The translations under genes were made by a program, and so were the position numbers. From Isurus oxyrinchus (taxonomy: Eukaryota), in contig JANJGN010000026.1 of NCBI GenBank assembly GCA_026770705.1, forward strand, positions 38,750,001-38,814,000: DNA of 64,000 nt, written 5' to 3'. Below are positions 1 through 53,300 of the stretch, one piece after another; position 1 is the stretch's first letter; the number at the start of each line of letters is the position of its first letter. The notes under the pieces were generated by a model. The model did no database searches and had not been told where the DNA came from. It was given only the letters and a program-made list of their open reading frames with translations.

Positions 1-346
1 TCTTTGTACAGCGCCCTCCCGTGCTCTGTAACACTGTATGTCTGTAATCCCACCATGTTCAGGTTTTTGTACAGCTCTCTCCGTGCTCTGTATCACTGTG
101 TGCCTCTAATCCCACCATGTTAAATTGTTGTACAGCGCCCTCCGTGCTCTGTATCACTGTGTGTCTGTGATCTCACCATGTTCAGGTTTTTGTACGGCTC
201 TTTCCGTGCTCTGTATCACTGTGTGCCTCTAATCCCACCATGTTAAATTGTTGTACAGCGCCCTCCGTGCTCTGTATCACTGTGTGTCTGTGATCTCACC
301 ATGTTCAGGTTTTTGTACGGCTCTTTCCGTGCTCTGTATCACTGTG
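1..346 (-). repeat. Tandem array of 23-bp-spacer RSS units (61/62-bp monomer, 123-bp dimer), truncated by the window start
   Basis: CACAGTG heptamers (minus strand) at 340-346, 278-284, 217-223, 155-161 and 94-100, each with a 23-bp spacer. Nonamers alternate ACAAAAACC (308-316, 185-193, 62-70) and ACAACAATT (246-254, 123-131). A degenerate sixth unit is at 1-38. Confidence 0.93.
308..346 (-). other. 23-RSS of the supporting Vdelta
   Basis: CACAGTG-atacagagcacggaaagagccgt-ACAAAAACC directly after ...CALSRRT; perfect consensus heptamer and nonamer. Confidence 0.95.
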
Positions 347-3254: not shown

Positions 3255-4464
3255 TGACTGAGGGCTCTCTTTGGGATACAGGAAGTTGCTCAATTGGTTC
3301 GGAGTTGGTCAATCTTAAGGCTACCAGAAGAAAATTGAATCCAGGAGTTACTTTGAGGGGTTTCAAAGTGAGAAGAGTGCAAAAATTGTTGCATCCATGG
3401 CACACATCATCTGTAACGTCATAACACGAGGCAATGCAGGCTGTCACGACTTCATCTCTTCTCATAGGATAAACCATTTAACTCAGGAAGCTGCCTGACG
3501 AAACTTTGTTCACTTCCTTCAAGGCATGTAGATGTTTTCTCAATTATGAATCTAAAACTTTACACAGCATCCAGACTGGAGTCCAGTGCAGTCCTTCCCA
3601 CACACAAGAGTTCTCCCAATAGCTTTGTAATACCGAGGAGTACTGATTCATCAGCTGAGGTGGCAGTTCGTGCATAGGTGGTAACCAGCAGGAGGTTTCC
3701 TTCCTATCATTGGGCTGATACCATGAGACGTCCTGCTATGGGAGTCAATGTTGAGGGCTCCAAGGGCAACTCCCTGCTGACTGCATATCACCTCGCCACC
3801 ATTTCTAGGACTATCATGCTGGTGGCCCAGGACATACACAGAGATAGTGATGGTGCTAGATAAGACACTGCCTCTAAGTTATGATTCCGTGAGTTTGACT
3901 CTGCCAGGTTGTTGCTTGACAAATATTTGGGAAAGCTCTCCCAGTTTTAGCACATACCTCCAGATGTTAGTAAGGAGGACACTGCAGGATGGACAGGCCT
4001 AGGTTTGCCATTGTCATTTCCGAAGCCTAGGTCGATTGCAGGTGGTGTGGTCCATGGATTATTCTTTTTTTTAGACTTAGCAGCCATTTGATTCAAATAA
4101 GTGGCTTGCTCTGTCATCATTTTACAAAGCACTGAAGAGTAAACTACAATTCTTTGTGTCTGAAGTTTTATGTAGGTTAGACCAGGTAAAAACAGCAAAT
4201 TTCCTTCGATTAAGTAGACTAGGGCGCTGGGCGGCTCGCAACAATCGGCAACAGTTTCATGATCACCATACTACCAACATCTTTTAACTCCTGGTGCTTG
4301 AATGCCACCAGCTGCTGCAGTGGGGTTTGAACCAGTATTAACACACAGAGGATTGACAGGGCATCTGGGTTACTAGTCTAATGACATTACCACGAGGCCA
4401 CCCCTCCCCATGGCGATTATTTGCCTGGATTCTTTACAACACGTCACGGTTTGGAGTCACTTAC

Positions 4465-4809
4465 CAGCTGTGACAGTCACCTCTGTCCCGGATCCGTCTG
4501 CATAACCATCTTTCCAAACGGAACCACATCCATATTTGTACTGAGCTTTACAGTAATAGGTGGCCGTGTCTTCAACGCTCAGATCCCGAATTTCCAGCGA
4601 AAAATTATTTACCGCTTTATTTATCGACACAACAAATCTCCCTTCGCTGGGGATCCGCTTCCACTCAGTGCCTGTCTGGGTTTTTCTGAAGAAATGTCCA
4701 TCCTGTAAACGATGATAATTACCATGGAATACACAGGTAATGATGAGGGACTGACACTCCTTCCTGGTCACCGCTACCGGGGTCTGTGTCACTGACTGAC
4801 TGAAAAAGC
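4465..4809 (-). CDS. Germline-joined NAR-TCR-type V(D)J exon, copy A
   Basis: Acceptor ttaatttccag|GC, donor G|GTAAGT. Open 345-nt frame FFSQSVTQTPVAVTRKECQSLIITC...YYCKAQYKYGCGSVWKDGYADGSGTEVTVTA. V runs directly into J-like sequence with no RSS. Confidence 0.92.
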
Positions 4810-4957
4810 CTGGAAATTAAACAGAGAGAGTTTAATGGGCCATCAGATCCGAAGTACAAAACGCGGTGCAAACGCCAGACAGTGTCTGTAATTGGGAAGG
4901 ACTCCGGCAGCTTTAGGTAAAATGCACACAACGTCGATTAGTTCGATTGGTTGCCAC

Positions 4958-4991
4958 GGAGTATACAGGGCAAAACAAGCTAAATTCCCAT
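4958..4991 (-). pseudogene. Defective leader exon of joined copy A
   Basis: ATG GGA ATT TAG (in-frame stop at codon 4), 9 nt shorter than the intact 43-nt leader, donor degraded to GTGGCA. Confidence 0.85.
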
Positions 4992-5045
4992 TCTTCTGCT
5001 TCCTGGAGCTGATAGTTTGTATGACGGGGAGCAGGAGATTGCGGC

Positions 5046-5547
5046 AATAAAAGCAGAAAGTGCTGGAAAAACTCAGCAAGTCTGGCAGCCTCTGTGGAGA
5101 GAGCAACAGCGTTAACGTTTCCAGTCGCTGTGGAGTGGTGTTGTTTTCAGACTAGTAGCCCAGGGACGCAGGCCAATATTCTGGGGTCCCTGGTTCGAGT
5201 TTAGCCAAGGCAGATGGTGGAATTTGAATTGAATCAACATCAGGAATCAAAAGTCTAATGATGACCATAAAACCATTGTCGATTGTTGTAAAAACCCATC
5301 AGGTTAACTTATGCCTTTTAAGGAAGGAAATCTGCCAATCTTATCGGGTCTGCCCTACATATGACTCCAGACGCACAGCAATGTGGTTGTCTCTGAAATG
5401 CCCGGATAGGCAATAAATGCTTGCCTTGGCAGTAGCGCCCACATCCAAAGATTAAAATAAAAGATGTTGCCAGAACTGCTGAGGATTTTCCAGCATTTTC
5501 TGTTTTTATTTCCGGTTTCTAGCATCCGCAGTATTTTGTTTTTATGT
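5046..5547. mobile_element. Composite insertion (Penelope-derived short repeat arms around a SINE-like core) in the promoter/5'UTR of copy A
   Basis: Flanked by an imperfect 13-bp direct repeat aggagattgcggc (5033-5045) / aggagactgcagc (5548-5560). Absent at the same position in the other three paralogues. Confidence 0.75.
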
Positions 5548-6860
5548 AGGAGACTGCAGCTCTGAACTGCTCATGGAGACTGCAACTCAGAGCTGGACTG
5601 AAATATTTTAGACTGTACAGTTCATTTGCCGTGGACTGTGTCCCTCGGATGATTGATGAGCCGTCCCATTTCCATCTCTCCGCTTGTGTGTTGCCTGAAT
5701 GAGTGACAGGTTTAAAAACGGAACCAGCGGTTTCATGTTGCTTCTTTGGGTCTGGAAGCCTGATGTGAAGTCCCCACTCCCATTTGTCTGATGTACAGTT
5801 GCTGGCGGGATGGGACGAGGGAGGTGGAATGGTTTTCCTTAGGAAAGTCTGCCTTCCTCTTTCTCCCACAATAATGAAATTGCAGGTGCGTCCATGTGCT
5901 TTTAATAAGAGGTAATGTTTGAGGGTGGGATGTGGGAGAATCTCTCTGTCTCCAATATTGTCCTAACTGTAGTTAAAAACAGACAAAATCTGGAAAAACC
6001 CGGGATATCTGGCAGCATCTAGCGCGGGTGAAACAGAGTTAACGTTTCGAGTCCCCATGACTGCTTCAAAGCTGCCTCTGCCGGAAATTGTTAAACATCT
6101 CCCTGAACTGGCTGGTGAGACTTCATTTGACTGCTTGATCAAAGGGAAGAAGCCTTATACCCGCCTCAGACAAGCAACTGAGGATCAAGATGCAATATGA
6201 GGTAGTCCAGTGACTTCCCAATGTTCAGGCAGAAAGAATCAACTCGCCATATCATTTAAACAAAAGCTTGTTGCACTCCTTCCATTATGATTTGCATTTG
6301 AACTGATCTATCCAGTAAACTATGGTTGATTTCCAGGTCCGGATTACTTAGAGCTTCCAGTTGCAATTAAATAACACGAAGAAACACTTAGAAGTGCAGT
6401 AGAAATGCGGAAACACGGTTTTTAAAATTTTATTTAAAGATCACAGTCACTGCCTTATGAAAGCTTTCATGTGGATTAGTTGTCCCTGATCCAACAACAC
6501 TGTTAAAATATAGCTCGTGAACAGTACCGGAGCAAAATCTGGAACTCCCTCCCTAACAGCACTGTGGGTGTACCTACACCACATAGAATGCAGCGGTTCT
6601 GGAAGGCAGCTCACCTTCTCAAGGGAAACTAGGGATGGGCAATAAATGCTGGCCCAGCCAGCGAAGCCCACATCCCGTCAATGAGAAAAAAAAACTATCT
6701 GCTCCAACATTTCCCTGTGGCAACAAGTTTCAAATCCTGGCGTGCCTTTGTTTAAATTTACCTTTCTTAATGCCTTTATTTTTTTGTTAGTGTGGATCAT
6801 ACATTGACGGCCCATTCCTCTGGACTCGCCCACAAATAAATTTGTGCTCCACATCCACCC

Positions 6861-8822
6861 ATAAGACCATAAGACATAGGAGCAGAAATTAGGCCATTCG
6901 GCCCAACGAATCTGCTCCGCCATTCAATCATGGCTGATAAGTTTCTCAACCCCATTCTCCCGCCTTCTCCCCGTAACATATGACCTCTTACCATCAAGAA
7001 CCTATCTATCTCGGTCTTAAATACACTCAATGACCTGCCTCCACAGCCTTCTGTGGCAATGAATTCCATAGATTCACCACTCTCTGGCTAAAGAAGTTTC
7101 TCCTCATCTCTTGTTCTAAAAGGTCTTCCCTTTACTCTGAGGCTGTGCCCTCGGGTCCTAGTCTCTCCTACTAATGGAAGCATCTTCCCCCTGTCCACTC
7201 TATCCAGGCCTTTCAGTATTCTGTTAGTTTCAATCAGATCCCCACTCATCCTTCTAAACTTCATCGAGTATAGACCCAGAGTCCTCAAACGTTCCTCATA
7301 TGTTAAGCCTTTCATTCCTGGGATCATTCCAGTGAAACTCTTCTGGATCCTCTCCAGGCCCAGCACATCGTTCCTGAGATACGGGGCCCAAAATTGCTCA
7401 CAATATTCTAAATGTGGTCTGACCAGAGCCTTATAAAGCCTCAGCAGCACATCCCTGCTTTTATATTCTAGTCCTCTTGAAATAAATGCCAACATTGCAT
7501 TTGGCTTCCTAACTACTGACTCTGCACTTTAGCCTTAAGAGAATCCTGTACTAGGACTCCCAAGTCCTTTTGCACTCCAGATTTCTGTATTCTCTCCTCA
7601 TTTAGAAAATAGTCTATGCCTCTAATCTTCCTACCAAAGTGCATGACCTTACACTTCCCCACATTGTAATCCATCTGCCACTTCTTTGCCCATTCTCCTA
7701 ACCTGTGCAAATCCGTATGCAGCCTCCCCACCTCCTTAATACTACCTGTCCCTCCACCTAACTTTGTATCATTTGCAAACTTCGCCAGAATGCCCTCAGT
7801 TCTTTCATCTAGATCATTAATGTATAAAGTGAAAAGTTGTGGTCCCAACCTGACCCCTGCGGAACTCCACTAAACACCAGCCATCATCCTAAGAAGGACC
7901 CCTTTAAGCCCACTCTTTGCCTCCTGCCAGACGGCCAATCTTCTTTCCATGCTAGTACCTTGCCTCTAACACCATGGGCTCTTATCTTACTGAGCAGCCT
8001 CCTGTGCGGCACCTTGTCAAAGCCCTTCTGGAAGTCCAAGTAGATAACATCCATTGGCTCTCCTTTGTCTAACCTACTCGTTACCTCTTCAAAGAATTCT
8101 AACAGATTTGTCAGGTATGACCTCCCCTTGATGAAACCAGGCTGACTTTGCCCTAATTTACCATGCACTTCCAAGTATTCTGAAATCTCATCCTTAATAA
8201 TGGTCTCTAAAATCTTACCAACGACCGAGGTCAGGCTAATCGGCCAGTAATTTCCCGTCTTTTGCCTCAGTCCTTCTTAAACAGGGGGGTTACATTAGCG
8301 ATTTTCCGGTCCTCTGGAACCCTCCCTGACTCCAGTGGTTCGTGAAAGATCACCACTAACGCCTCCACTATCTCTTCAGCTATCTCCTTCAGAACTCTGG
8401 GGTGTAATTCATCTGCTCCAGGTTATTTGTCCACCTTCAGACCTTTCCGTTTTCCTAGCACCTTCTCCTTGGTAATGGCCACCATACTCACCTCTGCACA
8501 CCACCCCCCCCCCCCCGACTTTCTTGAACTAGGGGGATGTTACTCGTGTTTTCCACCGTGAAGACTGATGCAACGTCCGTATTCAGTTCCTCTGCCATTT
8601 CTTTGTTCCCCAATATTACTTCTCCAACGTCATTTTCCAGGGCCCAATGTCCATTTTTACCACTTTCTTACCCTTTATATATCTAAAAAAAAACCTCTTG
8701 CAATCTTGTTTTATATTACTGGCTAGTTTACCCTCATATTTAATCTTCTCCCTCCTTATTTCTTTTTCAGTTGTCCTCTGTTGGTCTTTGTAGCCTTCCC
8801 AATCCCTTGGTTTCCCACTGCT
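6861..8822 (-). mobile_element. CR1-like LINE, 5'-truncated, frameshifted ORF2 (RT)
   Basis: ORF fragments YLDFQKGFDKVPH, GPQLFTLYINDLD...AKFANDTKL and LYKALVRPHLEYC. Short tandem tail (ataagacc/ataagac) at the 3' end. Confidence 0.92.
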
Positions 8823-10321
8823 CACCCCAGTGAACACGTTCATTATTTAGAAGATTTCTCTGAATTCTCCTCGCGTTTCTCTGTTTTCTAGAGAAAAGAA
8901 ACCAGGCCTGTTCAGCCTTTCCAGACAGATGTCGATTTGTTGTTCATTTATTTTCCAAAAAGTGGAAGAAATCAAAGAAGGTGACATAAGAAATAGGAGC
9001 TGCCGCCACCTTTCAAATCTGCTCCTCTGTTCAAGAATATAGTGGCTGATCTGTGTCCTGAATATCACAATCACGCACTGTCTCCATATCCCTTGATTCT
9101 TTCAGAGTCCAAACATCTATGAACACTGCCCATCTTTGATTAGATGCCATGAGACCTCATGGTGTCTGGAGTCAATGTTGAGGACTCCCAGGGGCAACAC
9201 CCTGCTGAGTGTATATCACCGTGCAGCTGCCTCTGGGACTGTCCTGCTGGTGGCAAAGGACATACACAGTGACACTCACTTTTGAGTATCCACAGCTCTC
9301 TCAGGTATAGAATGTCACGGATTCAAAATAATATTTTGACCAAAGACAAATCTCCTCATCTCAGTTCTAATGGCCGACCTCATATTCTAAACTCTGACAC
9401 CTGGAGAAACACCAACCCCAGAAGCTGCCCTGTTAGGCCCTTTAAGAATACTTCATGTTCCAATGATATCAGCTGTAATTTCTTCAAGCTCGAGGGAATC
9501 TATGCTTTAACTACGTAACTTCTCCTCATAGGACAATCCGTTTGGCTCTGGAATCAGTACGATGAACGTTGTTCACTTGCGCCAAAGCATGTAGATCCTT
9601 TCTGAAGAATGAGCCCCCAAGTTTACACAGCATTCCAAACTGGAGCCCATTGCAGTCATTGCCACACTGAATGCTTCCTCCAATTAATGTTCAATACGGA
9701 GGAAAACTGATTCATCAGTTGGTGGGTCGGTGGTAATCAGCAGGAGGTTTCCTTGCCCATCTTTGATTAGTTGCCATGAGACCTCATGGTGTCTGGAGCC
9801 GATGTTGAGGACCCCCAGGGGCAACACCCTGCTGAGTGTATATCACCTTGCAGCTACCTCTGGGACTGTCCTGCTGGTGGCACAGGACATACACAGGGAC
9901 AGTGATGGTGGTGCCTAAGACATTGTCAAAAGGCTATGATTCTGTGAGCATGACTCTTGTCAGTGTGTTGTCAGTGACTAGGCCATCATTTCAGGGAGCA
10001 TTTAAGAGTAAACCACATTGTTTTGTGTCTGGAGTCACATGCGGGTTAGACTAGGTTTAAACTGAATATTTCCATCACTAAAGGACATTCGTGAATCAGA
10101 TAACTTCCAGCAATGATTTCATGATCACTAGTTTAAATGCCAGTTGTTTATATTATTTGATTTTTAATTCCACCAGTTGCTGGGATTTGAAGCCGATTTC
10201 CCAGTTCATTTGCCTTGCCCTCTGGATTACGAGTCTAATGACATTACAACTAGACCACCCCCTCTCCAATGTGAACATTAACCTGGATACTCTGTAATAC
10301 ATGGCGGTTGGTGTCACTTAC

Positions 10322-10669
10322 CGTCAGTGACAGTCAACACCGTCCCTGATCCGAGTTCATATACATCTTTCGAAACGGTGCTCCCACATCTATATCTGTA
10401 CTGAGCTTTACAGAAATAGGTGGCGGTGTCTTCAACTCTCAAATCTCGAATTTCCAACGACAATGTCTTTTTTTCTTTATTCACGGACACAACAAATCTC
10501 CCTCCGCTGGAGATCCACTCCCGCTCTGTCCCGGTCTGGGTTTTTCTGAAGAAACGCCCGCCTTCTAAACTTTGAGAATTACCAGATAAAGCACAGGTGA
10601 TGGTGAGAGACTGACACTCCTTCCTGGTCACCGCTGCCGGGGTCTGTGTCACTGACTGACTCAAAGAGC
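10322..10669 (-). CDS. Germline-joined NAR-TCR-type V(D)J exon, copy B
   Basis: Intact acceptor (ttaatttccag) and donor (G|GTAAGT). Open 348-nt frame SLSQSVTQTPAAVTRKECQSLTITC...YFCKAQYRYRCGSTVSKDVYELGSGTVLTVTD. No RSS. Confidence 0.92.
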
Positions 10670-10816
10670 CTGGAAATTAAACAGAGAGAGTTTAATGGAC
10701 ATTCAGAGCCGAAACACAGAACGGGCTTAAACCCCAGACAGTGTCTGTAATTGGGATGGACTCCGGCAGCTTTATATTAAATCCATACAATGTCTGTTTG
10801 TTTGACCAGTGTTCAC

Positions 10817-10859
10817 GGGGTAAAAAAACACAAAGGGTGAAATCAAGGAGGGTTCGCAT
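10817..10859 (-). other. Leader exon of copy B, probably weakened
   Basis: MRTLLDFTLCVFLP is open but has Asp in the hydrophobic core. Donor is GTGAAC versus GTGAGT in the rearranging V. Confidence 0.75.
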
Positions 10860-13666
10860 CGTTCTGCTGTTTGGAGTTGGTGGTTTATTTGACATGGAGC
10901 AGGAGACTGCAGACCGGGACTGCTCTTGGAGACTGGGCCTCAGAGCTGGATTGAAATACTTTAGAGGGTAGAGTTGCTTTGCAGAGGGCGGTGTCCCACG
11001 GGCCACGCTGTATCCATCTCTCTGGTTGTGTGTTGTGTGAATAAGTTACAGATTTAAAAACGGAACCTGCAGTTTCATGTTGCTTCATTGGGCCTGTGAG
11101 CCTGAGGTGAAGTCCCCTCTCCTATTTACCTGATGTACAGTGCCCGGCGGGGTGGGTGAAGGGAGGTAGGGTTGTTTCCATTAGTGAAGTGTTCCGCCCT
11201 CATTCTCCCAAAACAATGAGCTTGTAGCTCCATCCATGTGTTTGTAGTGAGAGCTACTTCATGAGGATGGGATGTGGGAGAATCCCTCTTTCCTCAATAT
11301 TATTCTAACTGTCACGAGTATCAGAAAATGATGGAAACCTCATTAGTTCTGGCAGCATCTATGGAGAGTGAAACAAAATTAAAGTTTCGAGTCCATATGA
11401 CGCTTCTTCGGAGTTGACTGTGCTGGGGATTATTAAACATCTCTCTGAACTGTCTGGTGGGACTTCGGTTGAACGTCTTATCCAAGGGAAGGAACCTTAT
11501 ACCCGCCTTAGTCCAGCAACTGAAAACCTGGTTGAAATAAAAGACAGCCAAGTGACTTTGCCAAAACTGAGGCAGAAGTACATAATGACCGGAAAGAATA
11601 ACGTGTCCACATCATTGAAAGAAATGCTTGCTGCACTCCTTCCTCTGTGATTTGCATTTGAAATAATGCTTCCAGTAAACAATGTTTGATTTCCTAGTCT
11701 GGATAATTCAGAGTTTCCAGTTGCAGTGTTAGAACTTGAAGCCACACTCAGATGGACAGTTGAAATGGAGGCGGACACTGTGTTTGGGAATTGTTCAAAA
11801 TATCACACTCACTACCTTGTGAAACCTGGTCACTGTGTATAAACTGCACCAGGTCTAACAACACGTTCTGTTGAAATAAACCTCGTGAAGCAGCCGCGGT
11901 CAAATGCTCCTGGAAACTGACAGGGACGAGGACATGGGTCTGCTCAATAAACCAGATAGGTGCGCCAAGGGCTGAAAAAGGTCAAAAAAACGACTTTAGG
12001 AGCACCGAACTTCAAACTAATTTGGTCCACTGTACGTCACACAAACATGGCCGATCGTCCGACACTCAAATGTGGTCGATTGCTGAATGGACCTTTGAGT
12101 AGGGCCGGATGGGCTACCGCTGATCCCCAATGTGCCATCAAAGATATCAACCTCATCTCATTGACCGAAAAAGAAAATGAAGATCTGACAAGACCTCCTT
12201 GCTTCATAAACAAGTTTTGTAGATTAAATATCATCCATTTTCCTTCTGATTTTTCCGAATTCTCCTCGGGGTTCTGTGTTTTCCAGAGGGAAGAGGCCCC
12301 GCCTGCTCACCCTCTCCCGAGAGATGTCGATTGTTACTTATTTCTTTTCTCAAAAGCTGAATAAATCATAGCAGAGAACATAAGAAATAGAAGCTGGAGC
12401 CACCATAACACATTTCAAACCTACTCTGCCATTCAACAATTTCCTGGCTGATCTCCTTCTTCAAAATCACAATCCCACACTTTCCCCATATCCCTTGATT
12501 CTATCAGAGTCCAAACATTTATCGAACACTGTCTTGAATCCACTCACCACTGAGTGTGATCTGAAACTGTGACCCCTAGTTACAGACTGGACAGTCTGGA
12601 GAAACACCAATCCAGAATCTGCCTGTCAAGAATATTTTATATTCCAATGATATCAGCTGTTATTTCTCTAAACTCTCAGGAATATATGCTTTGACTACTT
12701 AATCTCTTCTCCTAGGACACTCCCTTTAACTCAGGAAGCAGTCTGCCGAGTCTTTGTTCGCTTCCGTCAAAGCATGTAGTTCCTTTCTTAATACTGAGTG
12801 CAAAGCTTTACACAGCATGCTGACTGGAGTCCATTACAATCCTTGCCGCCCTCAATGCTTCTTCCAATTGATGCTCAATAAGGGGGAGGACTGATTCATC
12901 AGCTGAACTAGAGATAGATGGTCATCAGCGGGAGGTTTCCTTGCCTATCTTTAACCTGATGCCAGGAGACTTCATGGGGCATGGATTCAATGTTGAGGAC
13001 TCCCAGGGGCAACTCGCTGCAGACTGCATATCAGCGCGCCGCTACCTCTGGTCTGTCTTGTCCGTGGCACAGGGCATACACAGGGATAGTGAAGACATTG
13101 TCAGTACGTTAAGTTAAGTGAGTATGACTATGTCAGGCTGTTGCTTGATAAACCTCCCAATTTTGGCACATGCCTCCAGAGTTACGAGGACATTGCAGGT
13201 TCGACAGGGCAGGGTTTAGCCACGGTCATATTGGGTACCTGTGTCGATGGCAGATGCTATGCCGAGTGGTGGGTCCAGGTTTCATTCCTTTTTATTTCAG
13301 GCTTCGCAGCGATTTCATTCATCTGAGTGACTAGGCCACCATTTCAAGCAGCATTAAAGAGTAATCCACATTGCTTTGTGTCTGGAGTCGCATGTACGTT
13401 AGACCAGGTTCAAACGGAAGATATCATTTCCTAAAGGGCATTGGTGAATCAGACATCTTGCAGCAATGGTTTTCTGATCACTTGTTTATATTATTAGATT
13501 TTTAATTCCATGCGTTGCTGCTGGTGGGATTTGAAGTAAGTTTCTCAGCTCATGGGCCTTGGCCTCTGGATTACGAGTCCAATGACATTACAACTAGACC
13601 ACCCCCTCCCCAATGTGATCATTAACCTGGATAGACAGTAATACATGGCGGTTTGGTGTCACTTAC

Positions 13667-14002
13667 CGGCAGTGACGGTCAACAACGTCCCAGGTCCGTC
13701 TTCATAAGCATCTTTCGAAACGGTGCTCCAACAATTATATCTGTACTGAGATCTACAGTAATAGGTGGCGGTGTCTTCAACTCTCAAATCTCGAATTTCC
13801 AGCGAAAAGGTTTTTTCTGTTTTATTCACCGACACAACAAATCTCTCCCACTCCCATTCTGTCCCGCTCTGGGGTTGTCTGAAGAAATGTCCGCTCACTA
13901 AACTATGAGAATTACCAGAGAAAACACAGGTGATGGTGAGAGACTGACACTCCTTCCTGGTCACCGCTGCCGGGGTCTGTGTCACTGAGTGACTGAAATG
14001 GC
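13667..14002 (-). CDS. Germline-joined NAR-TCR-type V(D)J exon, copy C
   Basis: Intact acceptor and donor. Open 336-nt frame HFSHSVTQTPAAVTRKECQSLTITC...YYCRSQYRYNCWSTVSKDAYEDGPGTLLTVTA. In-frame 12-nt deletion in the FR2/HV2 region relative to B. Confidence 0.92.
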
Positions 14003-14151
14003 CTGGAAATTAAACAGAGAGAGTTTAATGGACATTCAGAGCCGAACCACAGAACGGGGTTAAAACCCCCAGACAGTGTCGGTAATTGGGATGGACTTGG
14101 GCAGCTTTATATTAAATCCACACAATATCTGTTTGTTTAACCGGTACTCAC

Positions 14152-14194
14152 GGGGTAAACAGACACACAAGGTGAAAACAAGGAGGACTCCCTT
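14152..14194 (-). pseudogene. Leader exon of copy C with lost start codon
   Basis: AAG GGA GTC CTC CTT GTT TTC ACC... aligns to the intact leader with ATG changed to AAG. Donor GTGAGT is retained. Confidence 0.85.
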
Positions 14195-16599
14195 CGTTCT
14201 GCTGCCTGGAGATGAGGGTTTATATGACGGGAAGCTGGAGACTGCAGCCCTGAACTGCTCTGGAATACCGGACCTCAGAGCTGGACTGAAATACTTTAGG
14301 AGCTAGAGTTTCTTTGCAAAGGGCGGTGTCCCGCGGAGCATTGACGGGCCACACGATTCCCATCTCTCTGGGTGATTTCTCTGTGATTAAGTGACAGGTT
14401 TAAAAACGGAACCTACAGTTTCAGGTTGTTTCATTGGGCCTGTAAGCCTGATGTGAAGCCCCCTCTCCCATTTCTCTGATGTACAATGGCCTGCATAATG
14501 GGGCAAGGGAGGTGGAGTTGTTTCGGTTAGTGAAGTCTACCTCCTTCATTCTCCCACAGTAATGAGCTGGCCGGTCTGTCCATGTGTGTTTGGCAAATGG
14601 TATTTTATGAGAATGGGGTGTGGGAGAATTCCTCCTTCTCCAATATTATTCTAACTGTCATAAAAAAACAGAAAATGCTGGAAAGAGCTCGTCAAGTCTG
14701 GCAGCATCTGTGAAGAGTGAAACAGAATTAACGTTTCGAGTTTGTATGACTCTTCTTCAGAGCTACCTGTGCCGGAAATTATGAAACATCTCCCTGAACT
14801 GGCTGGTGGGTCTTCAGTTGAAAGTCTGTGCCAAGGGAAGGAGCCTTACACCCGCCTTAGTCCAGCAGCTGAGGACCAGATTACAATGTGAGACAGTCCA
14901 GTGACTTTTCCAATATTCAGGCGGAAGTACAGAAATACCACAAAGAATAAACTCTCCACTTCATTGAAACAAATGCTTGCTGCAGACCTTCCCCTGTGAC
15001 TTGCAATTAAAATGATGTTTCCAGAAAGTAATGTTTGATTTCCAGGTCTTGATTATTCAGTTTCCAGTTTTAGTGTTAAAACCTGAAGCCACACTCAGAG
15101 GGACAGTTGAAATGGGGGCGGACACTGTATTTGGGACTTGTTTAAAGTATCACACTCACTACTTTAGTGAAATCTGTTAGTTATGTTTAAACTGTCCTGG
15201 ATCTAACAACACGTTCTATTTAAGTGAAACTTGTGAACCGGCCGCAGTCAAATGCTCCTGGAAACTGACGGGGACAAGGACATGGCGCTGCTCAGTAATC
15301 CAGGCAGGCATGCAAAGGGCAGAAAAGGGCCAAGAAACTCCTTCAGGAGCAGAGGACCTCACCCTATCTTGGTCGACTGTACATCACACAAAAATGACCG
15401 ATCGTACGTCACTCAAAAGTGGTCGATTGTTTAATCGACCTTTGAGTAGCTCCGGATTGGCTGCAGCTGATCCCCAATGTGCAATCAAAGACATAAACAT
15501 CATCTGATCCGTCGAAAACTAAAACAAAAGCCTGAAAAAGCCTTTTTGCTTCATCTACAAGTTTTGCACATTAAATATTGTCCAATTTTCTTCTGATTTT
15601 GAATGCTACTGACGCGAAACGGCGCAGAACAGCGCATGACATAAACATGTTTTGCCTCAGAGCAACCACAAATATAACTTGTATTTTAAAGCACATTTAA
15701 TACAATGAAAGGTCCCTTCAGCAGCTCGTGACAGTGATCTTCGTGAAGCATGAATCGTAAGAGGCGGATGTGGCTGATCACCCGAGTCACCGTCTGCAAT
15801 GTGGGACCGTGGATACATTTTAGCATCGTGGTTACCAACACTCAGATTGTAGCAGTCTCATTTTAAGAGACCAAGATTCTTTAAAAGCAACCGGAAGGAG
15901 AAATATTATCTGAATGTTTTTCAATCAGCATTTGTTTGGAAAAAAAAAACATAATTTCTTCCATCAATAGTTTTAATTTTTCTTCCATTCAATTTATCTT
16001 GATATACTTACATTTAGTTTCATTTTATTTCTCCATTTCCTTTGTGCAGTTTGCGCTTCTTGCATGGGAACGTAGCAATCGTGAGAACTTGCCCCAAAGT
16101 CTCTCAGTTGTCTGTTGGGTTCAGTCTGTTCAGTTTCCCTAGTGGTTTTACTGTTACTCACTGGGAACTGCGTCTTCCCCCTCTCTGACAATTTCAAATT
16201 TGTTCCGCCCATTTACTGATTGAAGTTTTCTTGAAGTTTTACTTTACTCAGTATCTACCAGAGGAGGAACAATCCATTCTGCTCAACTGATTTATGCCTG
16301 CGTATTTACTGCGGACCAGCCCTCATCCGCCCGAAATCTAATTTCCAATAAGCTCCCTGAGTCAGTCTGTTCGGCTCTCCTTCCTGTACTTTCAAGTCTT
16401 CCCATAAATGTATCAATACTCTCTGCTCCAACCACTCCCTGCGGCAGCAAGTTCCACATTCTGACCTGCCTGTTTTTACACTTCTTCTTCTTAATGTCAT
16501 TATTTGTTCTGTGAGTGACTGTCTTATTCTAATAGTTCTAGGCTCACCCACAAATAAGCAGCTATTCCACAAATACCCCAATGAACCCACTCGTTACTT

Positions 16600-18211: not shown

Positions 18212-18269
18212 CGGCTGTGACAGTCACCACTGTCCCGGATCCATCCACATAATCATCTTTATAACTCAC
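18212..18269 (-). CDS. NAR-TCR J segment
   Basis: VSYKDDYVDGSGTVVTVTA followed by G|GTAAGT. IgNAR-like DGxGT motif, preceded by an RSS. Confidence 0.93.
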
Positions 18270-18624: not shown

Positions 18625-18700
18625 AGTATTTGTTAAGGTCTCTCCCACTGTGATTTCCCCAGTCACCACCCACACAGTATTACAAGTCAGCATGAAATCC
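18625..18700 (-). other. NAR-TCR D segment (coding 18653-18672, TGGGTGGTGACTGGGGAAAT) flanked by two 12-RSS
   Basis: 3' RSS CACAGTG-12-ACAAATACT (18652-18625); 5' RSS CACAGTA-12-ATGAAATCC (18673-18700). Frames WVVTGE, GW-stop and GGDWGN. Confidence 0.88.
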
Positions 18701-19027: not shown

Positions 19028-19065
19028 AGTTTTTGTATCGCGCGAAGGCGAAGCCCATCACTGTG
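19028..19065 (-). other. RSS (22-bp spacer, 23-class) of the rearranging NAR-TCR V
   Basis: CACAGTG (19065-19059), 22 bp, ACAAAAACT (19036-19028). Confidence 0.93.
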
Positions 19066-19354
19066 TATGTGTAGTATCTGTACTGAGCTTTACAGTAATA
19101 GGTGGCGGTGTCTTCAACTCTCAGATCTCGAAGTTCCAGAGAAAATGTGTTTTCTGCATGATTCACCGACACAACAAATCTCCCCCCGCTGGAGATCCGC
19201 TTCCACTCTGTCCCGGTCTGGGTTTGTTTGAAGAAATGTCCCGTTCGGAAATAATGCCACGAAGCACCGGAGAAAACACAGGTGATGGTGAGAGACTGAC
19301 ACTCCTTCCTGGTCACCGCTGCCGGGGTCTGTGTCACTGACTGACTGAAAGAGC
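19066..19354 (-). CDS. Unrearranged NAR-TCR V exon (IgNAR-like V), apparently functional
   Basis: SFSQSVTQTPAAVTRKECQSLTITCVFSGASWHYFRTGHFFKQTQTGTEWKRISSGGRFVVSVN...DTATYYCKAQYRYYT. VNAR-like short FR2/CDR2, FR1 Cys, followed by an RSS. Confidence 0.94.
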
Positions 19355-19503: not shown

Positions 19504-19546
19504 GGGGGAAACAGACACAGAGGGTGAAAACAAAGAGGATTCCCAT
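19504..19546 (-). CDS. Leader exon of the rearranging NAR-TCR V
   Basis: MGILFVFTLCVCFP + C|GTGAGT, 43 nt, phase 1, compatible with the V exon acceptor at 19355. Confidence 0.92.
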
Positions 19547-19664: not shown

Positions 19665-19793
19665 ATTTGCATAGGGCAGTGATGTTGAGATTGTAGATGG
19701 GCCGCACGGGTCCCGGGCCGCTGGCTAAGTGTTGTGTGAATTAGAGACAGGTTTATAAAATGAGGCTGCAATTTTCTGCTTCTTCATTTGCAT
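19665..19793 (-). promoter_or_regulatory. Two octamer motifs (ATGCAAAT in sense orientation) in the NAR-TCR V promoter
   Basis: ATTTGCAT on the plus strand at 19665-19672 and 19786-19793, about 120 and 240 bp upstream of the ATG. Same orientation as in IgH V promoters. Confidence 0.65.
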
Positions 19794-25180: not shown

Positions 25181-25710
25181 AGGCGGCCGCGGGCACTGTT
25201 GTCACTCGTAAAATCTAACGACAATGAGCTGAGTTCAAAACTAACACGCTCAACAGAAATTATATAATTCTGCCTGTCTGTAAGGACTGCGTTACGTTCA
25301 TAGTCATTTCGAATCTGGGGAAAACAGTCTGGCGACAAGAATTAGGGAATTGTTGTATTATTCCGTAATTACAGATACCTTCATAGTTGAAATCAATTAA
25401 ATCAAGGGGCTGAATCTGACGTGGGGAGCAGAACAACTGGGCATCTCATCCCAATGTACTGGAGCTGGGCTGTTGATTAACACTGAAATAAAACTTCCCA
25501 ATTATGGGTCTCTAAGGAAACGTCACACTGATGGGCATAAATACGAGATGAAACACCATTTTTCCTCAAGTATTTTTAAGGAAGTTTGTCAGGAGGTGGG
25601 AATCCACGGCTTTATGCGCCACCTGGTGGCCGAACCTAATGAATCTTATTTTCACTGATCTCACAAAACACAGGAACGGTGTGAGTTGCCCCGAGGCCTT
25701 TCTCAATGAG

Positions 25711-26001
25711 GGTCTCAGCACACAGTAATACATGGGGTTGTCAGCGACCTGAAGCACAAACAAGGTGAAAGCAGCTATATTCCTGGCTATTTTTCGAATG
25801 ACTGAAAAGCGACCTTTAATGTTTTTTCCACAAGAATATGCCCGAATTACGAAAGCTGGAGCCGGGTTCTGGTTTTGACGATGAAGCAGCAAAAAATAAT
25901 TTACATCGTAAGTTGAATAGATGCAACTGATGCTCATCGAGATGCCTCCAGTTATTGGGCTTCTGTTGACAACTGTCCGACTGAACATCCAGAACTGACT
26001 C
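25711..26001 (-). pseudogene. TCR alpha/delta-type V pseudogene
   Basis: Acceptor ttctgcag|GA. The phase-1 frame GVSSGCSVGQLSTEAQ hits a stop; the shifted frame gives SISCIYSTYDVNYFLLLHRQ...RFSV...LQVADNPMYYCVLR. Conserved Trp lost, heptamer degraded to CTCATTG (25710-25704), no good nonamer. Confidence 0.8.
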
Positions 26002-32779: not shown

Positions 32780-34860
32780 AATCATTTCTGCACCAAACCC
32801 TGTCCCTGTTCATATTAAACTTGACCTTTGACTGTATGTATTACACTCAGTGATGTCTCTGATCATATTATAACAGGCTGTGTCACAGTTGTTTCTATAA
32901 TAGCTCAATCTCAGTCAATATACAGGGCAAAAACCATATTACACTATACATTCTCTCAGTTATCACATCACTAAACCATGTCTTGGCTAATATGACAATA
33001 GTCCATGTCTCAGTTGTTACTGCACTGGTACTTGTCTCTACTTATACGAAACCAGATCATGTTCCTGTTTACATGTCACGAGGCTCTGTCTCAGTTATTG
33101 CACTACTAGACTCTGCCACGTTAATACTAAACTAGGGGATGCCTTGGCAAACGCTGCACCAATCTATGTCTTTGTTTATATCACACGATGCCCTGTCACT
33201 GTTATTATTGTATAATACCATGCGTCTCTCTTATTGCTGCACTTTCCCACATCTCTGTTTATATTAATCTAGGCCCTGTGTTGGTAGTTATTGCACGAAG
33301 TTCTGTCTCATTTTATATTAGACAACGTCCTGTATCAGATGAAACTGCAGTAGACCCAGTGTCAGTTTCCTTTCACTAGATCCTGCCTCAGTCATTACTG
33401 AACTAGACCATGTCGGTGTTCATATTACACAAGACACTGTCTCAATTATTATTGCACTCAGCACTGCCTCGCTTTTTACTCCACTATATCATGCCTCTGT
33501 TTATATTACACTAGATCACTTTTTTGCTTATATTCTGTTAGACCCTATCTCAGTTTATATAACACTTGACCCTGTCTCAGTTTATATTACCGTCTCAGAT
33601 AATGTTACACTGGAGCCCGTCTCGGTTTATATTATACTAGAGCATGTCTTTGTTTACATTACAATAGACCCTGTCTCAGTTTATATTACACTAGACCCTG
33701 TCTCAGTTTATATTACACTAGACCCTGTCTCAGTTTATATTACATTAGATCCCGCCCCAGTCTATATCACACTAGGATAAAAACAAAGAAAACTGCGGAT
33801 GCTGGAAATCCAAAACAAAAACAGAATTACCTGGAAAAACTCAGCAGGTTTGGCAGCATCGGCGGAGAAGAAAAGAGTTGACGTTTCGAGTCCTCATGAC
33901 CCTTCGACAGAACTTGATACCATCGAAGGGTCATGAGGACTCGAAACGTCAACTCTTTTCTTCTCCGCCGATGCTGCCAGACCTGCTGAGTTTTTCCAGG
34001 TAATTCTGTTTTTGTTTTATATCACACTAGACCCTGTTTCAGTTTATATTACACTAGACCCTATCTCAGTTTATATTACACTAGACCCTGTCTCAGGTTA
34101 CATTACACTAGACCCTGTCTCAGTTTATATTACACGAGGCCCTGGCTCCGTTTATATGACACTAGGCATTGCTTCTGTTTATATTATAATAGGCTCTGTC
34201 AATGTTATTCCTGTGTAGGACATTTCTCTATTTATACCACACAAGGCCAAGTCTGTTATTACTGCACTAAACCCTGGCTCAATAATTGCTGATACTAGCC
34301 CCAGCCTTCGTTTGTATTACTGTAGATGCTGTGTCAATAATTGGTGCACTCGGGCCTGTCTCAGCATTACTGCACCAGACCCTGACTTTTTCTATATTGA
34401 AATGGATTACGTCTATGGTAATATTACATCAGTTCCTGCCTCGGTTATTTCAGTGCTTGGCCTCGTCTCAGCTGGCCCTGAATTCGGCTGTGGCTCTGTA
34501 TTACGTGTGGAAAACCCTGAGTTATTTCTGCTCTCGGCCCTGTGTCTGTATATACAACGTGAAACCCTGTCTTAGTTTCTGCTGCACTAATCCATACATC
34601 TCCTTTTATTACACTCGCCCTGTCCCTGTTCTTATTCCACTAGATCATGTCTTTGTATGTCTTACACTATAGGCAATCTGAGTTATTAGTGCACCAGACC
34701 CTGTCTAGGGTGTTATTAATCCATGTGTCGGATCAATCATTATTGTTCTAGCCCCGAGACAGGATTAATATCAATTGACCCAGTGCTTAATGCGCTAACC
34801 CTGCCTCAGTTATTTCTACGCTTAGCCATGTCTCTGTGATTATTGCAGTGGTCAATGTCT
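32780..34860 (+). repeat. 27-bp minisatellite (ctagaccctgtctcagtttatattaca)n, degenerate at the edges
   Basis: Near-perfect units at ~33660-33775 and ~34020-34140; gives 9-aa periodic spurious ORFs (DPVSVYITL). Confidence 0.9.
33778..34017. mobile_element. Fold-back insertion of a Penelope terminal-repeat fragment
   Basis: Arms ~33812-33907 and ~33923-34018 are near-perfect reverse complements. Flanked by the direct repeat tatatcacactag. Confidence 0.85.
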
Positions 34861-47305: not shown

Positions 47306-50300
47306 ATCCAGATTGATATAAAGTGAGACAGTGCCTCGTGCAGTGATTACTAATGGAGGGTCTAGATCATCAAGAACTGAGACAGGGCCTAGTGCAATGC
47401 TTACTGATACAGGATCTAGATTTATATGAACTGCGACATGCTCGAGTGCGGTGATTACAGACACAGATCTAGATTAATATAAACTGAGACGGGGTCTAGT
47501 CCAGTGTTTACTGATATTGGGTCACCGTCAATATAAATTCAGACAATGTCCAGGGCAACGATTACTGATACGGGGTCTAGGTTTATATACACTGAGGCTG
47601 GCCATAGTGCAGTGATTACTCATACAGGGCTGAGATAAAAATAAACTAGGACAGGGGGTAGTGCAATGATTACTGATACAGGGTGTAGATCAATATAAAC
47701 AGAGACAGTGTCCTTTGCACTGATTATGATATAGGGTCTAGATCAATATAAACTGAGGCAGTGTTCAGCGCAGTAATTACTGATACAGGGTCTAGATTAA
47801 TAAAACTTGTGATGGGGCCAAGTGCAGTGATTACTGTTGTCGGGTCTAGGTTGATATAAACTGGTGCAGGGGATAGTGCAGTGATTACTCATAATGAGTC
47901 TAGATTAATATAAACTGAGACAGGACCAAGTGCAATTATTACTGATACATGGTCGAGATCAATATAAACTGAGGCAGTGTCCAGTCGAGTGATTACTGAT
48001 ACAGGTCTTGATTAATATGAACCGAGACAGGGTATAGTGCTGTGATTACTGATACAGGTTCCAGCTTGATATAAACTGAGACAGGGCATTGTGCAGTGAT
48101 TATTGATACAGTGTCTAGATAAATATAAACTGGGACAGGGGCTAGTGCAATGATCATTCTTACAGTGTCTGGACTAAAATAAACTGAGTCATTCCCTAGT
48201 TCTGTCATTATTAAAACAGGTTCTGGACTAATATAAATTGAGTTAAGGCCTAGTGCAGTGATTACTGATACAGGATACAGATTTATATAAACTGAGGCAT
48301 GGCATAGTACAGTGATTACTGATACAGGGCTTCGATTGATATAAAATGAGACAGTGTCCATTCACTGATTATGATGCAGGGCCAAGATCAATATAAACTG
48401 AAACAAAAACAAAAATACCTGGAAAAACTCAGCAGGTCTGGCAGCATCTGTGGAGAGGAACACGGTTAACATTTTGAGTCTGCATGACTCTTCAACAGAA
48501 CTAAGAAAAAATAGAAAAGGTGTGAAATATAATCTGGTTTTAAGTTGGGAGGTTGGGACAAGAAGAGCTGGATAGAGGGCCAGTAATAGGTGGACATAAC
48601 CAAAAGATATCACAGACAAAAGGACAAAGAGGTGTTGAAGGTGATGATATTATCTGAAGGAATGTGTTAATTATGGGTAGAAAACAGGACGAGCAAGGTA
48701 CAGATAGCCCTAGTGGGGGTGTGGTGAAGGAATTGAAAAAGGCTAAATGGTAGAGATAAAACAATGGATGGAAATATATTTGGGTCTAGTGCCGTGATTA
48801 CTGATACAGGGTCTAGATTAATAGAACTTGAGACAGGCCAAGTGCAGTGATTACTGCTAGAGGGTTTAGATTGATATAAACTGATGCTGGGTCTAGTGCA
48901 GCGATTACTGACACAGGGTCTAGATCAATATAAACAGAGATAGGGTCGAGTGCAGTGATTACTGATACAGGGTCTAGATTAATAGAACTTGAGACAGGCC
49001 AAGTGCAGTGATTACTGCTAGAGGGTTTATATTGATATAAACTGATGCTGGGTCTAGTGCAGCGATTACTGACATAGGGTTTAGATCAATATAAACAGAG
49101 ATGGGAGCAAGTGCAGTGATTACTGATCCAGGGTCTATATAAATATATACTGGGATGGGGGCCAATGCAGTGATTACTGATACAGGGTTTGGACTCTTAT
49201 AAACTGAGGCATTTTCGAGCTCTGTCATTATTCATACAGGGTGTGGACTCATATAAACTGAGACAGGGCTGAGTGAAGTGATTACTGATACAGGATCTGG
49301 ATTGATATAAGAAGAGGCAGGCTATAGTGCAGTGATTACTGATATGGGGTCTAGATCAATATAAACTGAGACAGATCATAGTGCAATGATGACTGTTACA
49401 GGGTCTATATGATAAAGACTGAGGCAGGGCATATTGCAGGGATTACTGATACAGGGTCTACATTAATGTAAACTGTGACAGAGCCTAGTGCAGTGATTGC
49501 TGATACAGGGCCGAGGTAAATATAAAGTAGGACAGAGGCTAGTGCAGTGATTAATGATACAGGATCAGGATCAGTATAAACTGAGGCAGTGTCCATTGCA
49601 GTGATTACTGATACAGGGCCTAAATTAATATGAACTCAGGCAGGGCCTAATGCAGCGATTACTGATTTAGGGACCAGATTAATATGAACTGAAGCAGGCC
49701 ATAGTGCAATGATTACTGATACTGGGTGTAGATCAATATAAACTGAGACAGGGCCCAGTACAGTGATTACTGATACATGGTGTAGATCAATATAAACTGA
49801 GACAGGCCCTAGTGCAGTGATTACTGATAGACGGTCTAGGTTGATATAAAGTGAGGCAGGGCCTAGTGCAGTGATTACCGACACAGGGACTAGAGTAATA
49901 TAAACTAGGTCAGGGGCTAGTGCAGTGATTAATGATATCAATGATACAGGATGAGGATCAATATAAACTGAGACAGTGTCCATTGAAGTGATTACGGTTA
50001 CAGGGTGTACATCAGTATAAACTGAGATAAGTTCCACTGATGTGATTAATGATGCAGGGTCTGGATTAATATAACATGAGATAGTGTCTAGTGCAGTGAT
50101 CACTGATCCAAGGTCTTGATAAATATAAAACTGAGATAGTGTCTAGTGCTGTGATTACTGATACATGGTCTAGATTAATATGAACTGAGGCACAGACTAG
50201 TGTAGCCATTACTGATTTAAAGTCCTAGATTGAAATAAACTAAGACAGGGCATATTGCAGTGATTGCTGATACAGGGTCTAAATTATTATAGGCTGGGGC

Positions 50301-53300
50301 AGGGCATATTGAAGTGATTACTGATACAGGGTCTAGGTTAATAGAAACTGAGAGAGGGCAAAGTGCAATGATTATAGATTCAGGGTGCAGATTATTATAA
50401 TCCCAACAGGGACGAGTGCAGTGATTACTGAAACAGGGCCTTGATTAATATAAACTGAATCAGGCTTTTGTACAGTAATCACCAACACACGGACTGAATT
50501 AACATAACCTGAGACAAGGCCTGGTGCAGTGTTCACTGACACAGGGCCCAGATAAATATAACTGAGACAGGGGCTCGGGCAGTGATTACTGCTGCAGGAA
50601 CTAAATTAATGTAAACTTTGATACGGCCTAGTGCAGTGATTACTGATACAGCATCTAGAATGATTTAAAAAAAACTGAGGCAGGGCATAGTGCAGTGATT
50701 GCTGATACAGGGTACAGATTTATATAAACTCAGACAGGGCCTAGATAAATATAAGCCAGGCCAAGGGCTAGTGCAGTGATTAATGATACAGGATCATGAT
50801 CAATATAAACTGAGACAGTGTCCTTTGCAGTGATTACCGATACAAGATCTAGATCAATATTAATGGAGATAGGGCCCAGTGCAGTGATTACTGATAGAGG
50901 CTCTGGACTAATATAAACTGAGACAGGGCCTAGTGCAGAGATTACTGATACAGGGTCTTGATTGTTATAAACTGAGTCAGGGCATTATGCAATGATCCAA
51001 ATGCAGGCTTTATGTTAATATAAACTGTAACAGGATCTTGTTCAGTGATTACTGATACAAGGTCTATTTGATATAAACTGAGGGAGGGCATATTGCAGTA
51101 ATACAGAGCCTAGATCAATATATATGGAGACAGTGTTCATTGCAGTGATTACTGATGCAGGGTCTTAATTAATAAAAGTGGAGACACTGCCAAGTGCAGT
51201 GATTACAGATACAGAGTCTAGGCTGATATAAACTGAGGCAGACCATAGTCAGTGGTTACTGATACTGGGTCCAGATAAATTTTAAACTGAGACAGGCTCT
51301 AATGCAGAAAGAATTTTTGCAAAGTCTAGATCAATAGAAACTGATGCAGGGTCTAATGCAGTGATGATTGATACAGGGTATAGATTAATATAACCTGAGA
51401 CAGGGCCTGCTGTATTGATTAAAGATACAGGGTCAAGATTGATAAATACTGAGGCAAGGCATAGTGCAGGGATTACTGATACAGGGTCGAGATTAATTTA
51501 AATTGAGACATGGTTTGGTGCAGAGCTTACTGATAGAGAATCAGGATCAATATAAACTGAGACAGGGGCCCAGTGCAGTGATTACTGACACAGGGTCTAG
51601 CTTAATATAAACTGTGGCAGGGCTCAGTGCAGTGATTACTGACATTTGGTCTCAATCAATATAAACTCAGACAATGTCCAAAGCAGTGATTACTGATACA
51701 GGGCCGAGATAAATATAACTTGAGGCAGGGCCTACTGCAGTGATTACTGATACAGTGTTTAGGTTAACAGAAACTAAGAGAGGGCCAAGTGCAGTGATTG
51801 TAGATTCAGGGTGCAGATTATAATAACCAGAACAGGGACGAGTGCAGTGATTACTGAAACAGGGCCTTGATTAATATAAACTGAGACAGGGTCTTGTACA
51901 GTAATTACTGATACACGGTCTGAACTAACATAAACTGAGACAGGGCCTGGTGAAGTGTTCATTGATATAGGGCCTAGATAAATATAACTGGGACAGGGGC
52001 TCGGGCAGTGATAACTGACACAGGGTCTAGGTTAATATATATTGAGATGGGGCCTAGTGCAGTGATAACTGAAACATGGTCTAGATTCATAAAAAAAAGC
52101 TGAGGCAGGACATAGTGCAGGGATTATTGATAAAGGGACTCGGCTAATATCAAGTGAGACAGAGATAAAAACAAAGAAAACTGCGGATGCTGGAAATCCA
52201 AAACAAAAACAGAATTACCTGAAGTGAGACAGAGTCTAGTGCAGAGATAACAGATGTGGGACCACGATCAACATCAACTGAGATAGCTTCTACTGTGGTG
52301 AATCCTGATACAGGGTCTCAGTCAATATAAACTCAATGTGCAATGCAGTGATTACTGATACAGAGCCAAGATAAATATGAAATGAGGCAGGGCCTACTGC
52401 AGTGATTACTGATACAGGGTCTAGGTTAATAGAAACTGAGAGAGGGCCAAGTGCAGTGATTATAGATTCAGTGTGCAGTTTATTATAACCAGAACAGGGA
52501 CGAGTGCAGTGATTACTGAAAAAGGGGCTTGATTAATATAAACTGAGATCGGCTCTTGTATAATAATTACAAATACACGGTCTGAACTAACATAAACTGA
52601 GAAAGGGCCTGGCAAAGTGTTAATTGATATAGGGCCTAGATAAATATAACTGGGATGAGGCTCGGGCAGTGATAACTGATACAGGGTCTAGATTGATAAA
52701 AAAAAAAACCTGAGGCAGGACATAGTGCAGGGATTACTGATACCGGGCCGAGATTAATATAAACTCAGAGAGGGTCAAGTGCAGTGATTACTGGTATAAG
52801 GTTCAAATTGATATAAAATGACATAGGGTCTACTGCAGTGATTACGGATATAGGGTCTAGACTGATATGAACTGAGACAAGGCCTGGTGCCGTGATTTGT
52901 GTTACAGGGTTGGATGCATATAAAATGGGACAGGGCCTAGTGCAGTGATTACAGGCACAGGCTTTAGATTAATTGAAACTGAGAAACAGTCCAGTGCAGT
53001 GCTTTTAGGTTCAAGGTGCAAATTATTAATACCAGAACAGGGTTGAGTGCAATGATTACTGAAACAGGGTCTTGATTAATATAAACTGAGACAGGCTCTT
53101 GTGCAGTAATTACTAATGCAGGGTCTGAACCAACATAAACTGAGACAGGGCCTGGTGAAATGTTCACTGGTACAGTGCCTAGATAAATACAACTGGGACA
53201 GGAGCTCTTGCAGTGATGACTGCTGCAGGGACTAAATTAATATAAACTGAGGCTGGATCTAGTGCAGTGATTACTAATAAAGGGACTAGACTAATATAAA

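Follow-up and report, generated by a model that had tools for sequence, protein, structure and literature searches.

This locus raises the question of what a T-cell receptor (TCR) cassette does with variable (V) exons that are already joined to joining (J) sequence in the germ line and whose leaders are damaged. The window, by which we mean the whole 64,000-nucleotide stretch analysed (Isurus oxyrinchus, a mako shark, assembly GCA_026770705.1, contig JANJGN010000026.1, positions 38,750,001 to 38,814,000), contains what its sequence identifies as a shark NAR-TCR (TCR-delta) cassette on the minus strand, where all features of the cassette given below lie. The order on this strand is a rearranging NAR V-D-J, then the joined exons C, B and A, then a leaderless supporting V-delta. 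Recombination signal sequences (RSSs) are present for the V, the diversity (D) segment, the J and the V-delta, and exons C, B and A retain none. Each of A, B and C is a V(D)J exon joined in the germ line, and we propose that they are probably included by splicing as invariant internal domains, which would lengthen the NAR-TCR delta chain. The evidence for this is strong for A but less so for B and C.

The first-pass annotation had described the three exons as intact, with damaged leaders and proximal promoters. The exons are indeed open (A, 4465 to 4809, 345 nt; B, 10322 to 10669, 348 nt; C, 13667 to 14002, 336 nt with a 12-nt deletion), have AG acceptors and GTAAGT donors (that of A at 4465), encode four Cys each and differ in length only by 3- and 12-nt indels. 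Like R, the rearranging V of the cassette, the joined copies keep the Cys of the a-b loop and are without the Trp of the WYRK motif; a working leader is not kept. The leader of copy A (4958 to 4991) has its ATG at 4991 and is dead, with a TAG at codon 4 (4982-4980), a 9-nt deletion and the donor GTGGCA, and a 503-bp repeat insertion (5046 to 5548, assigned to neither strand) lies between it and the upstream promoter region. An upstream offset resembling this insertion is also seen in other copies with a stop in the leader. The leader of copy C (14152 to 14194) is dead through ATG>AAG at 14194. The leader of copy B (10817 to 10859) is open and reads MRTLLDFTLCVFLP, with an Asp in its core, an altered TATA-like box and a weak donor, GTGAAC, which has 5/9 U1 matches compared with 7/9 for R. 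Leader lesions and open exons are thus found together in this cassette. Two further contigs, C151 and C210, carry near-identical copies of the cassette (L021-L026), in which J and copy C are separated by some 2.5 kb more. The donor of copy B is polymorphic, as both contigs have GTGAGC there, and in both the leader donor of copy C has lost its GT, a G being missing. From these differences leader decay looks polymorphic and ongoing.

The promoter part of the earlier description fared less well. The octamer-site variants at 5624, 10977 and 14312 are as it gave them, as are the perfect copies of ATTTGCAT at 6290, 11650 and 19665, and a further perfect octamer lies at 19786. The proximal change had been taken as damage peculiar to the joined copies. 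We located the site in 12 of 16 rearranging Vs and found it perfect in only one, the window's own R, and the promoter argument therefore fails. In two joined copies elsewhere the site reads CTGCAAAT, identical to that of one rearranging V.

The V-J junction common to the joined exons has a D-like start, as in the germline Ds, and ends as J sequence. Among 43 longer homologues the same junction is found in four, three from white shark (P0001, P0002 and P0004) and one from basking shark (P0003), and the white-shark model P0001 has two joined domains in tandem. The form of the junction seen in B and C is also kept in white-shark and basking-shark models. In a tree of the V parts alone, which omitted haplotype-like contigs and broken rows, the 15 joined rows cluster as a single clade, with a support of 87/91 that does not reach the starred threshold. 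The shared junction and the shared clade place one germ-line joining event before the split of the mako, white and basking sharks and give all joined exons a single origin. The leader intron is retained in the joined copies, which indicates direct joining at the DNA level. An assembly artefact, or a somatic rearrangement in the sequenced animal, might be suspected because blood-derived assemblies may include rearranged V(D)J. However, the junction recurs in 11 cassettes, on more contigs with the C-B-A order and in two other species; this excludes both sources, and we regard their probability as negligible. Heptamer slippage was also considered as the origin of the junction, but the D-like start is more in keeping with a coding joint. 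Whole-exon models in Mustelus, Heterodontus, Stegostoma, Hemiscyllium, Scyliorhinus, Rhincodon and Pristis have unrelated junctions and were taken as joins made by the model or in the transcript. A search for proteins of near length returned two unjoined Vs only.

We searched the genome's own contigs and retrieved 40 stretches. Contig C26 has 17 joined exons in 11 cassettes, and with one further joined exon on C242 the total is 18; about 50 unjoined NAR-V-like matches were counted by hand on C26. A supporting V-delta lies downstream in all 11 cassettes with joined exons and a V...J module upstream in 10 of them. Five look complete, namely that of the window and those at 37.9, 30.05, 31.15 and 35.93 Mb, and in six comparison cassettes the J directly precedes the V-delta. 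The leader is dead in 17 of the 18 joined copies (16 of the 17 on C26), copy B being the sole exception, and ATG and GT of the leader are kept in 16 of 17 rearranging Vs. The lesions comprise the codon-4 stop, ATG>AAG, ATG>ATA and GT>CT with or without a deletion. Because the joined copies share ancestry, we count at least four lesion events rather than 17, and a Fisher test on leader state was not used. On C26, 11 of the 17 joined exons are open. Three of the broken ones have a TAG at one common codon, the upstream V of their cassettes being either missing or out of frame through a frameshift, and three have a deletion that removes the acceptor.

Some of the other cassettes have features of their own. 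The one at 37.9 Mb on C26 (L001) is a second three-copy cassette, with one B/C-type and two A-type copies and an additional truncated V fragment between the latter. At 29.97-30.04 Mb on C26 (L010-L014) there are three tandem cassettes in which the RSS of the rearranging V is degenerate and no D match precedes the J. They resemble the basking-shark P0009, and each joined copy in them has lost its acceptor and most of its V. In the first complementarity-determining region (CDR1) of the supporting V-delta at 30.03 Mb on C26 (L014), CEYSCIRQY stands for CEYSGICQY, the extra Cys having moved by two residues rather than being lost. At 36.38 and 33.16 Mb on C26 (L004-L007) the frameshifted upstream Vs continue straight into D sequence, which would represent a germline V-D join or a deletion in dead cassettes.

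The first-pass annotation had also suggested that selection acts on the joined exons as internal exons. In the ten non-identical open joined exons the ratio of nonsynonymous to synonymous rates (dN/dS) is 0.62 (p=0.004), with 0.50 in the framework (p=0.003), and in 12 rearranging Vs it is 0.89. Six A-type exons with one common leader stop have a dN/dS of 0.57 (p=0.023). As these exons share the stop, the value points to constraint that continued after the leader had died, that is, to purifying selection on A-type exons since leader loss. The suggestion of selection on internal exons is therefore upheld for the A class and not for the B/C class, to which we return below. Divergence of exon and flanks bears it out, with tree lengths per site of 0.54 for the exon, 0.95 for leader plus intron and 1.23 for the downstream intron. 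Rates at codon positions 1, 2 and 3 are 0.41, 0.50 and 0.73, and the 25 fourfold sites evolve at 0.95, the flank rate, so there is no sign of homogenising conversion. The indel spectra lean in the same direction short of significance, exon indels being in frame in 2 of 2 cases compared with 5 of 18 in the flanks (p=0.11). As a rough figure, flank rates predict some 22 frame-breaking events for the 10-exon tree, compared with 3-4 lesion events seen among the 18 joined copies. Acceptors and donors of the joined exons are kept while leader donors decay.

Four sequencing runs presumed to be RNA (none is recorded as RNA, and the label is a guess) were aligned to the region of copy A, 4400-5035; the transcript support described here is limited to A-type exons. 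Ten contigs lie on exon A, and coverage of either flanking intron is absent. Record 7 of run X10 has the A-type junction, 70 nt on the exon, an end at donor 4465 and 114 nt beyond it that are closest to a supporting V-delta start (6/30 differences). Records 1 and 2 of run X1 stop at the same donor and enter a V-delta start, their consensus differing at 2/30 positions from three V-delta starts; record 1 reaches 20 nt past the donor. In record 3 of X1, 40 nt of J end are joined to 85 nt of a NAR-V exon start. Because its J side has one difference from the end of A compared with 4-10 for the 22 unjoined Js retrieved, this record is a joined exon spliced to a NAR-V acceptor, and it represents either tandem inclusion, as in white-shark P0001, or a circle. 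Had the record come from an ordinary J, a certain 35-nt pattern should occur; the one pattern tried had no exact match in an unjoined J. The presumed-RNA contigs therefore show the acceptor as well as the donor of A-type exons in use. One contig has an intact leader on a V start, as in ordinary rearranging Vs, and this is the only spliced leader found; no contig covers the leader region of A. Run X12 gave nothing and run X14 only a 35-nt partial match.

The splices from exon to V-delta would also be compatible with joined exons that are, or recently were, standalone N-terminal domains of an invariant NAR-TCR with their own promoter, copy B being the survivor. Copy B has retained its ATG, its leader is still open and its donor is better on the two other contigs, and the newt TRD locus uses germline-joined V-J in this way (PMC12698447). 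Models P0002-P0004 begin with an intact leader placed before the joined V, which also counts against internal use, though the leader is maybe not the copy's own. The leader tally, on the other hand, leaves 16 of 17 copies on C26 unable to make a leader, the constraint on A-type exons persists past their common stop, and the contigs show the intact leader of the rearranging type and none from copy A. Furthermore, the Cys in the third complementarity-determining region (CDR3) of a joined domain would presumably be partnerless at the tip. We give this explanation little credence.

Several other observations weigh against splicing of all three exons as internal domains. Six of the 17 joined copies on C26 are broken, two open joined exons follow Vs with degenerate RSS and no D, and the codon tests took in open exons only; among the ten, the dN/dS of the loops, 0.73, is not significant and that of CDR3 is 1.27. 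The comparison of A, B and C alone, which had been put forward as a check, did not reach significance (0.70, p=0.13) and is underpowered. The contigs are few, have a depth of 4-7 and differ from A by up to 18/191 letters, so that they may come from paralogs or a relative, and two of the four runs are uninformative. Record 7 of X10 is closest to the copy at 25.2 Mb, which has no upstream V. The jump in record 3 of X1 equals the exon length of 345 and is compatible with a back-splice, and none of the presumed-RNA contigs over A has a J of rearranged or unjoined type running into a joined exon. All joined exons might instead be pseudogene relics of an old germline RAG event that are skipped or degraded and are open by chance or through conversion from active Vs; in favour of this are the six broken copies, a modest dN/dS near 0.6 obtained from open copies only and record 3, perhaps a circular by-product. 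That dN/dS is nevertheless significantly below 1 and lower than in the rearranging Vs, fourfold sites are not homogenised, the joined Vs are a clade of their own and the exon splice sites are kept as leader donors die. We consider relics very improbable.

A further possibility is that use is limited to the A-type exon, which would add a single internal domain, and that B and C are duplicates in drift, either skipped or simply tolerated. The three B/C-type exons have a dN/dS of 0.98, which counts against internal use of this class, C is short of four residues, a frameshift disrupts the B/C-type copy on C242 and the RNA support is for the A type alone. Set against this, B, C and the copy at 37.9 Mb have open frames, undamaged splice sites and all four Cys, their junction is retained in the two other sharks, and three sequences give the test little power. 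On balance we think it unlikely that use is confined to the A type.

Under the internal-domain model that we prefer, reading frame is no obstacle. The J donor and every acceptor are in phase 1, and the joined exons are of phase 1-1 with lengths that are multiples of three, so any subset of them keeps the frame into V-delta. We envisage a duplication of a NAR V-D-J module on the upstream side of V-delta, after which RAG, acting in a germ cell, joined the downstream copy, and this copy retained its leader intron and the D-like start of the junction. Transcription would begin at the rearranged upstream V, and the J donor would first meet the acceptor of a joined exon. The product would be L-NARV(DJ)-[joined V]n-Vdelta(DJ)-Cdelta, where n is 1 in most joined-exon cassettes and up to 3 in the window, so that a chain of 4 to 6 extracellular domains is predicted. 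For a joined copy, a leader of its own would have become useless or harmful, hence its repeated loss, as in the supporting V-delta. Because the joined copies are without a usable leader, a surface protein would be possible solely behind an upstream rearranged V.

The four Cys, that is the canonical pair, the a-b loop Cys and the CDR3 Cys, are invariant in 10 of 10 open joined exons, and the fetched Ds do not appear to encode a Cys at the CDR3 position. As 55 of 115 columns are invariant, the invariance of the CDR3 Cys alone is not significant, which also tempers our model. The a-b loop Cys and the CDR1 Cys of V-delta are marked as a putative interdomain bridge in PMC1845163. An inserted domain would break this pair unless it offers a Cys on top, a role that the CDR3 Cys would fill. 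Each joined domain would then be linked upward through its CDR3 Cys to the previous a-b Cys and downward through its own a-b Cys to the next CDR3 Cys or to the CDR1 Cys of V-delta, leaving no free thiol. Cys counting of this kind suggests a stackable stalk of linked domains that raises the binding tip. We speculate, tentatively, that mackerel sharks may have a delta chain of variable height, with a diversified single-domain tip, one to three disulfide-locked invariant NAR V modules and a second rearranged V-delta. It would have up to six extracellular domains, the length of its stalk depending on how many gene copies are present and perhaps on exon skipping.

The window resembles NAR-TCR, as PMC1845163 and PMC5931798 describe it, in its NAR-type V with a leader, its leaderless V-delta with a CDR1 Cys and its V-D-J followed by a V-delta with its own RSS; the NAR-TcRV of PMC1845163 has a leader, the a-b loop Cys and a missing WYRK Trp. 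It differs in having one to three extra joined, leader-damaged NAR V exons between J and V-delta. NAR-TCR has three extracellular domains, whereas 4-6 are predicted here from the genes alone, the extra ones having a CDR3 Cys. At the DNA level, then, the window departs from the two-V layout of NAR-TCR, three further in-frame V exons intervening. A functional parallel may be Vmu-j of marsupial TCR-mu, which is likewise an invariant germline-joined V(D)J exon that follows a rearranging V-D-J and encodes a non-terminal domain (PMC7615758, PMC3457774 and PMC2275272). According to the same papers, however, Vmu-j is derived from the immunoglobulin (Ig) heavy-chain locus, belongs to its own C-mu cluster and is a membrane-proximal V pairing with V-gamma; it has no leader intron, which for the marsupial gene, TRMVj, is stated in PMC2275272. 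The shark joined exons are NAR-derived, keep the leader intron, occur in tandem and are additional to a rearranging supporting V-delta. The likeness is one of convergence and not of homology. RAG-type joining in the germ line is also behind the joined Ig clusters known from cartilaginous fish and, in the newt Pleurodeles, the joined TRD V-J (PMC3149040 and PMC12698447). Those are described there as ready-made binding domains, whereas the shark exons are mostly leaderless and apparently internal. In the literature searched, including PMC12227049 and PMC6795676, we found no description of a germline-joined or multi-V NAR-TCR; Criscitiello 2006, Criscitiello 2010, Ott 2021 or their supplements could contain one. 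If our reading is true, germ-line RAG activity would have led to a structural V domain a second time and independently, here at the DNA level. The receptor would be taller than any TCR described, a point of interest for the way in which antibody-like TCRs gain access to native antigen. There is also a consequence for annotation, as NCBI labels one joined-exon model a DSCAM-like protein.

The remaining parts of the cassette are as follows. The leader of R (19504 to 19546) is intact, reads MGILFVFTLCVCFP and has the donor GTGAGT. Exon R (19066 to 19354) is an open rearranging NAR V with the a-b loop Cys (KECQS), HFFKQ and no WYRK Trp, and its RSS, CACAGTG-22-ACAAAAACT, starts at 19065 directly after it. 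A single D (18653 to 18672) is flanked on both sides by a 12-spacer RSS, the 5' nonamer being weak as judged by eye, and the J (18212 to 18269) has a 23-spacer RSS and a phase-1 GTAAGT donor. In line with the kinship of the N-terminal V of NAR-TCR to the V of IgNAR, the PDB sequences that match exon A best belong to VNARs (7spo_C, E 3e-19). Among named sequences, white-shark and basking-shark gene models are the nearest to this exon, and its homologues include NAR-V/V-delta chains. The supporting V-delta exon (347 to 652) is open, has the CDR1 Cys (CEYSGICQY) and a perfect 23-RSS at 346; a search upstream of the exon (652-347) gave no leader match. This RSS sits in a 62/123-bp tandem repeat (window 3-346) with perfect RSSs at 346, 223 and 100, and the spare ones at 223 and 100 could serve as decoy or secondary cut sites. 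A degenerate TCR-V-like remnant at 25707-25950 on the minus strand resembles part of the basking-shark model P0039. Long 27- and 54-bp satellite arrays, related to each other and present in both orientations, occupy 33605-34165, 47310-55452 and 57799-59273 of the window.

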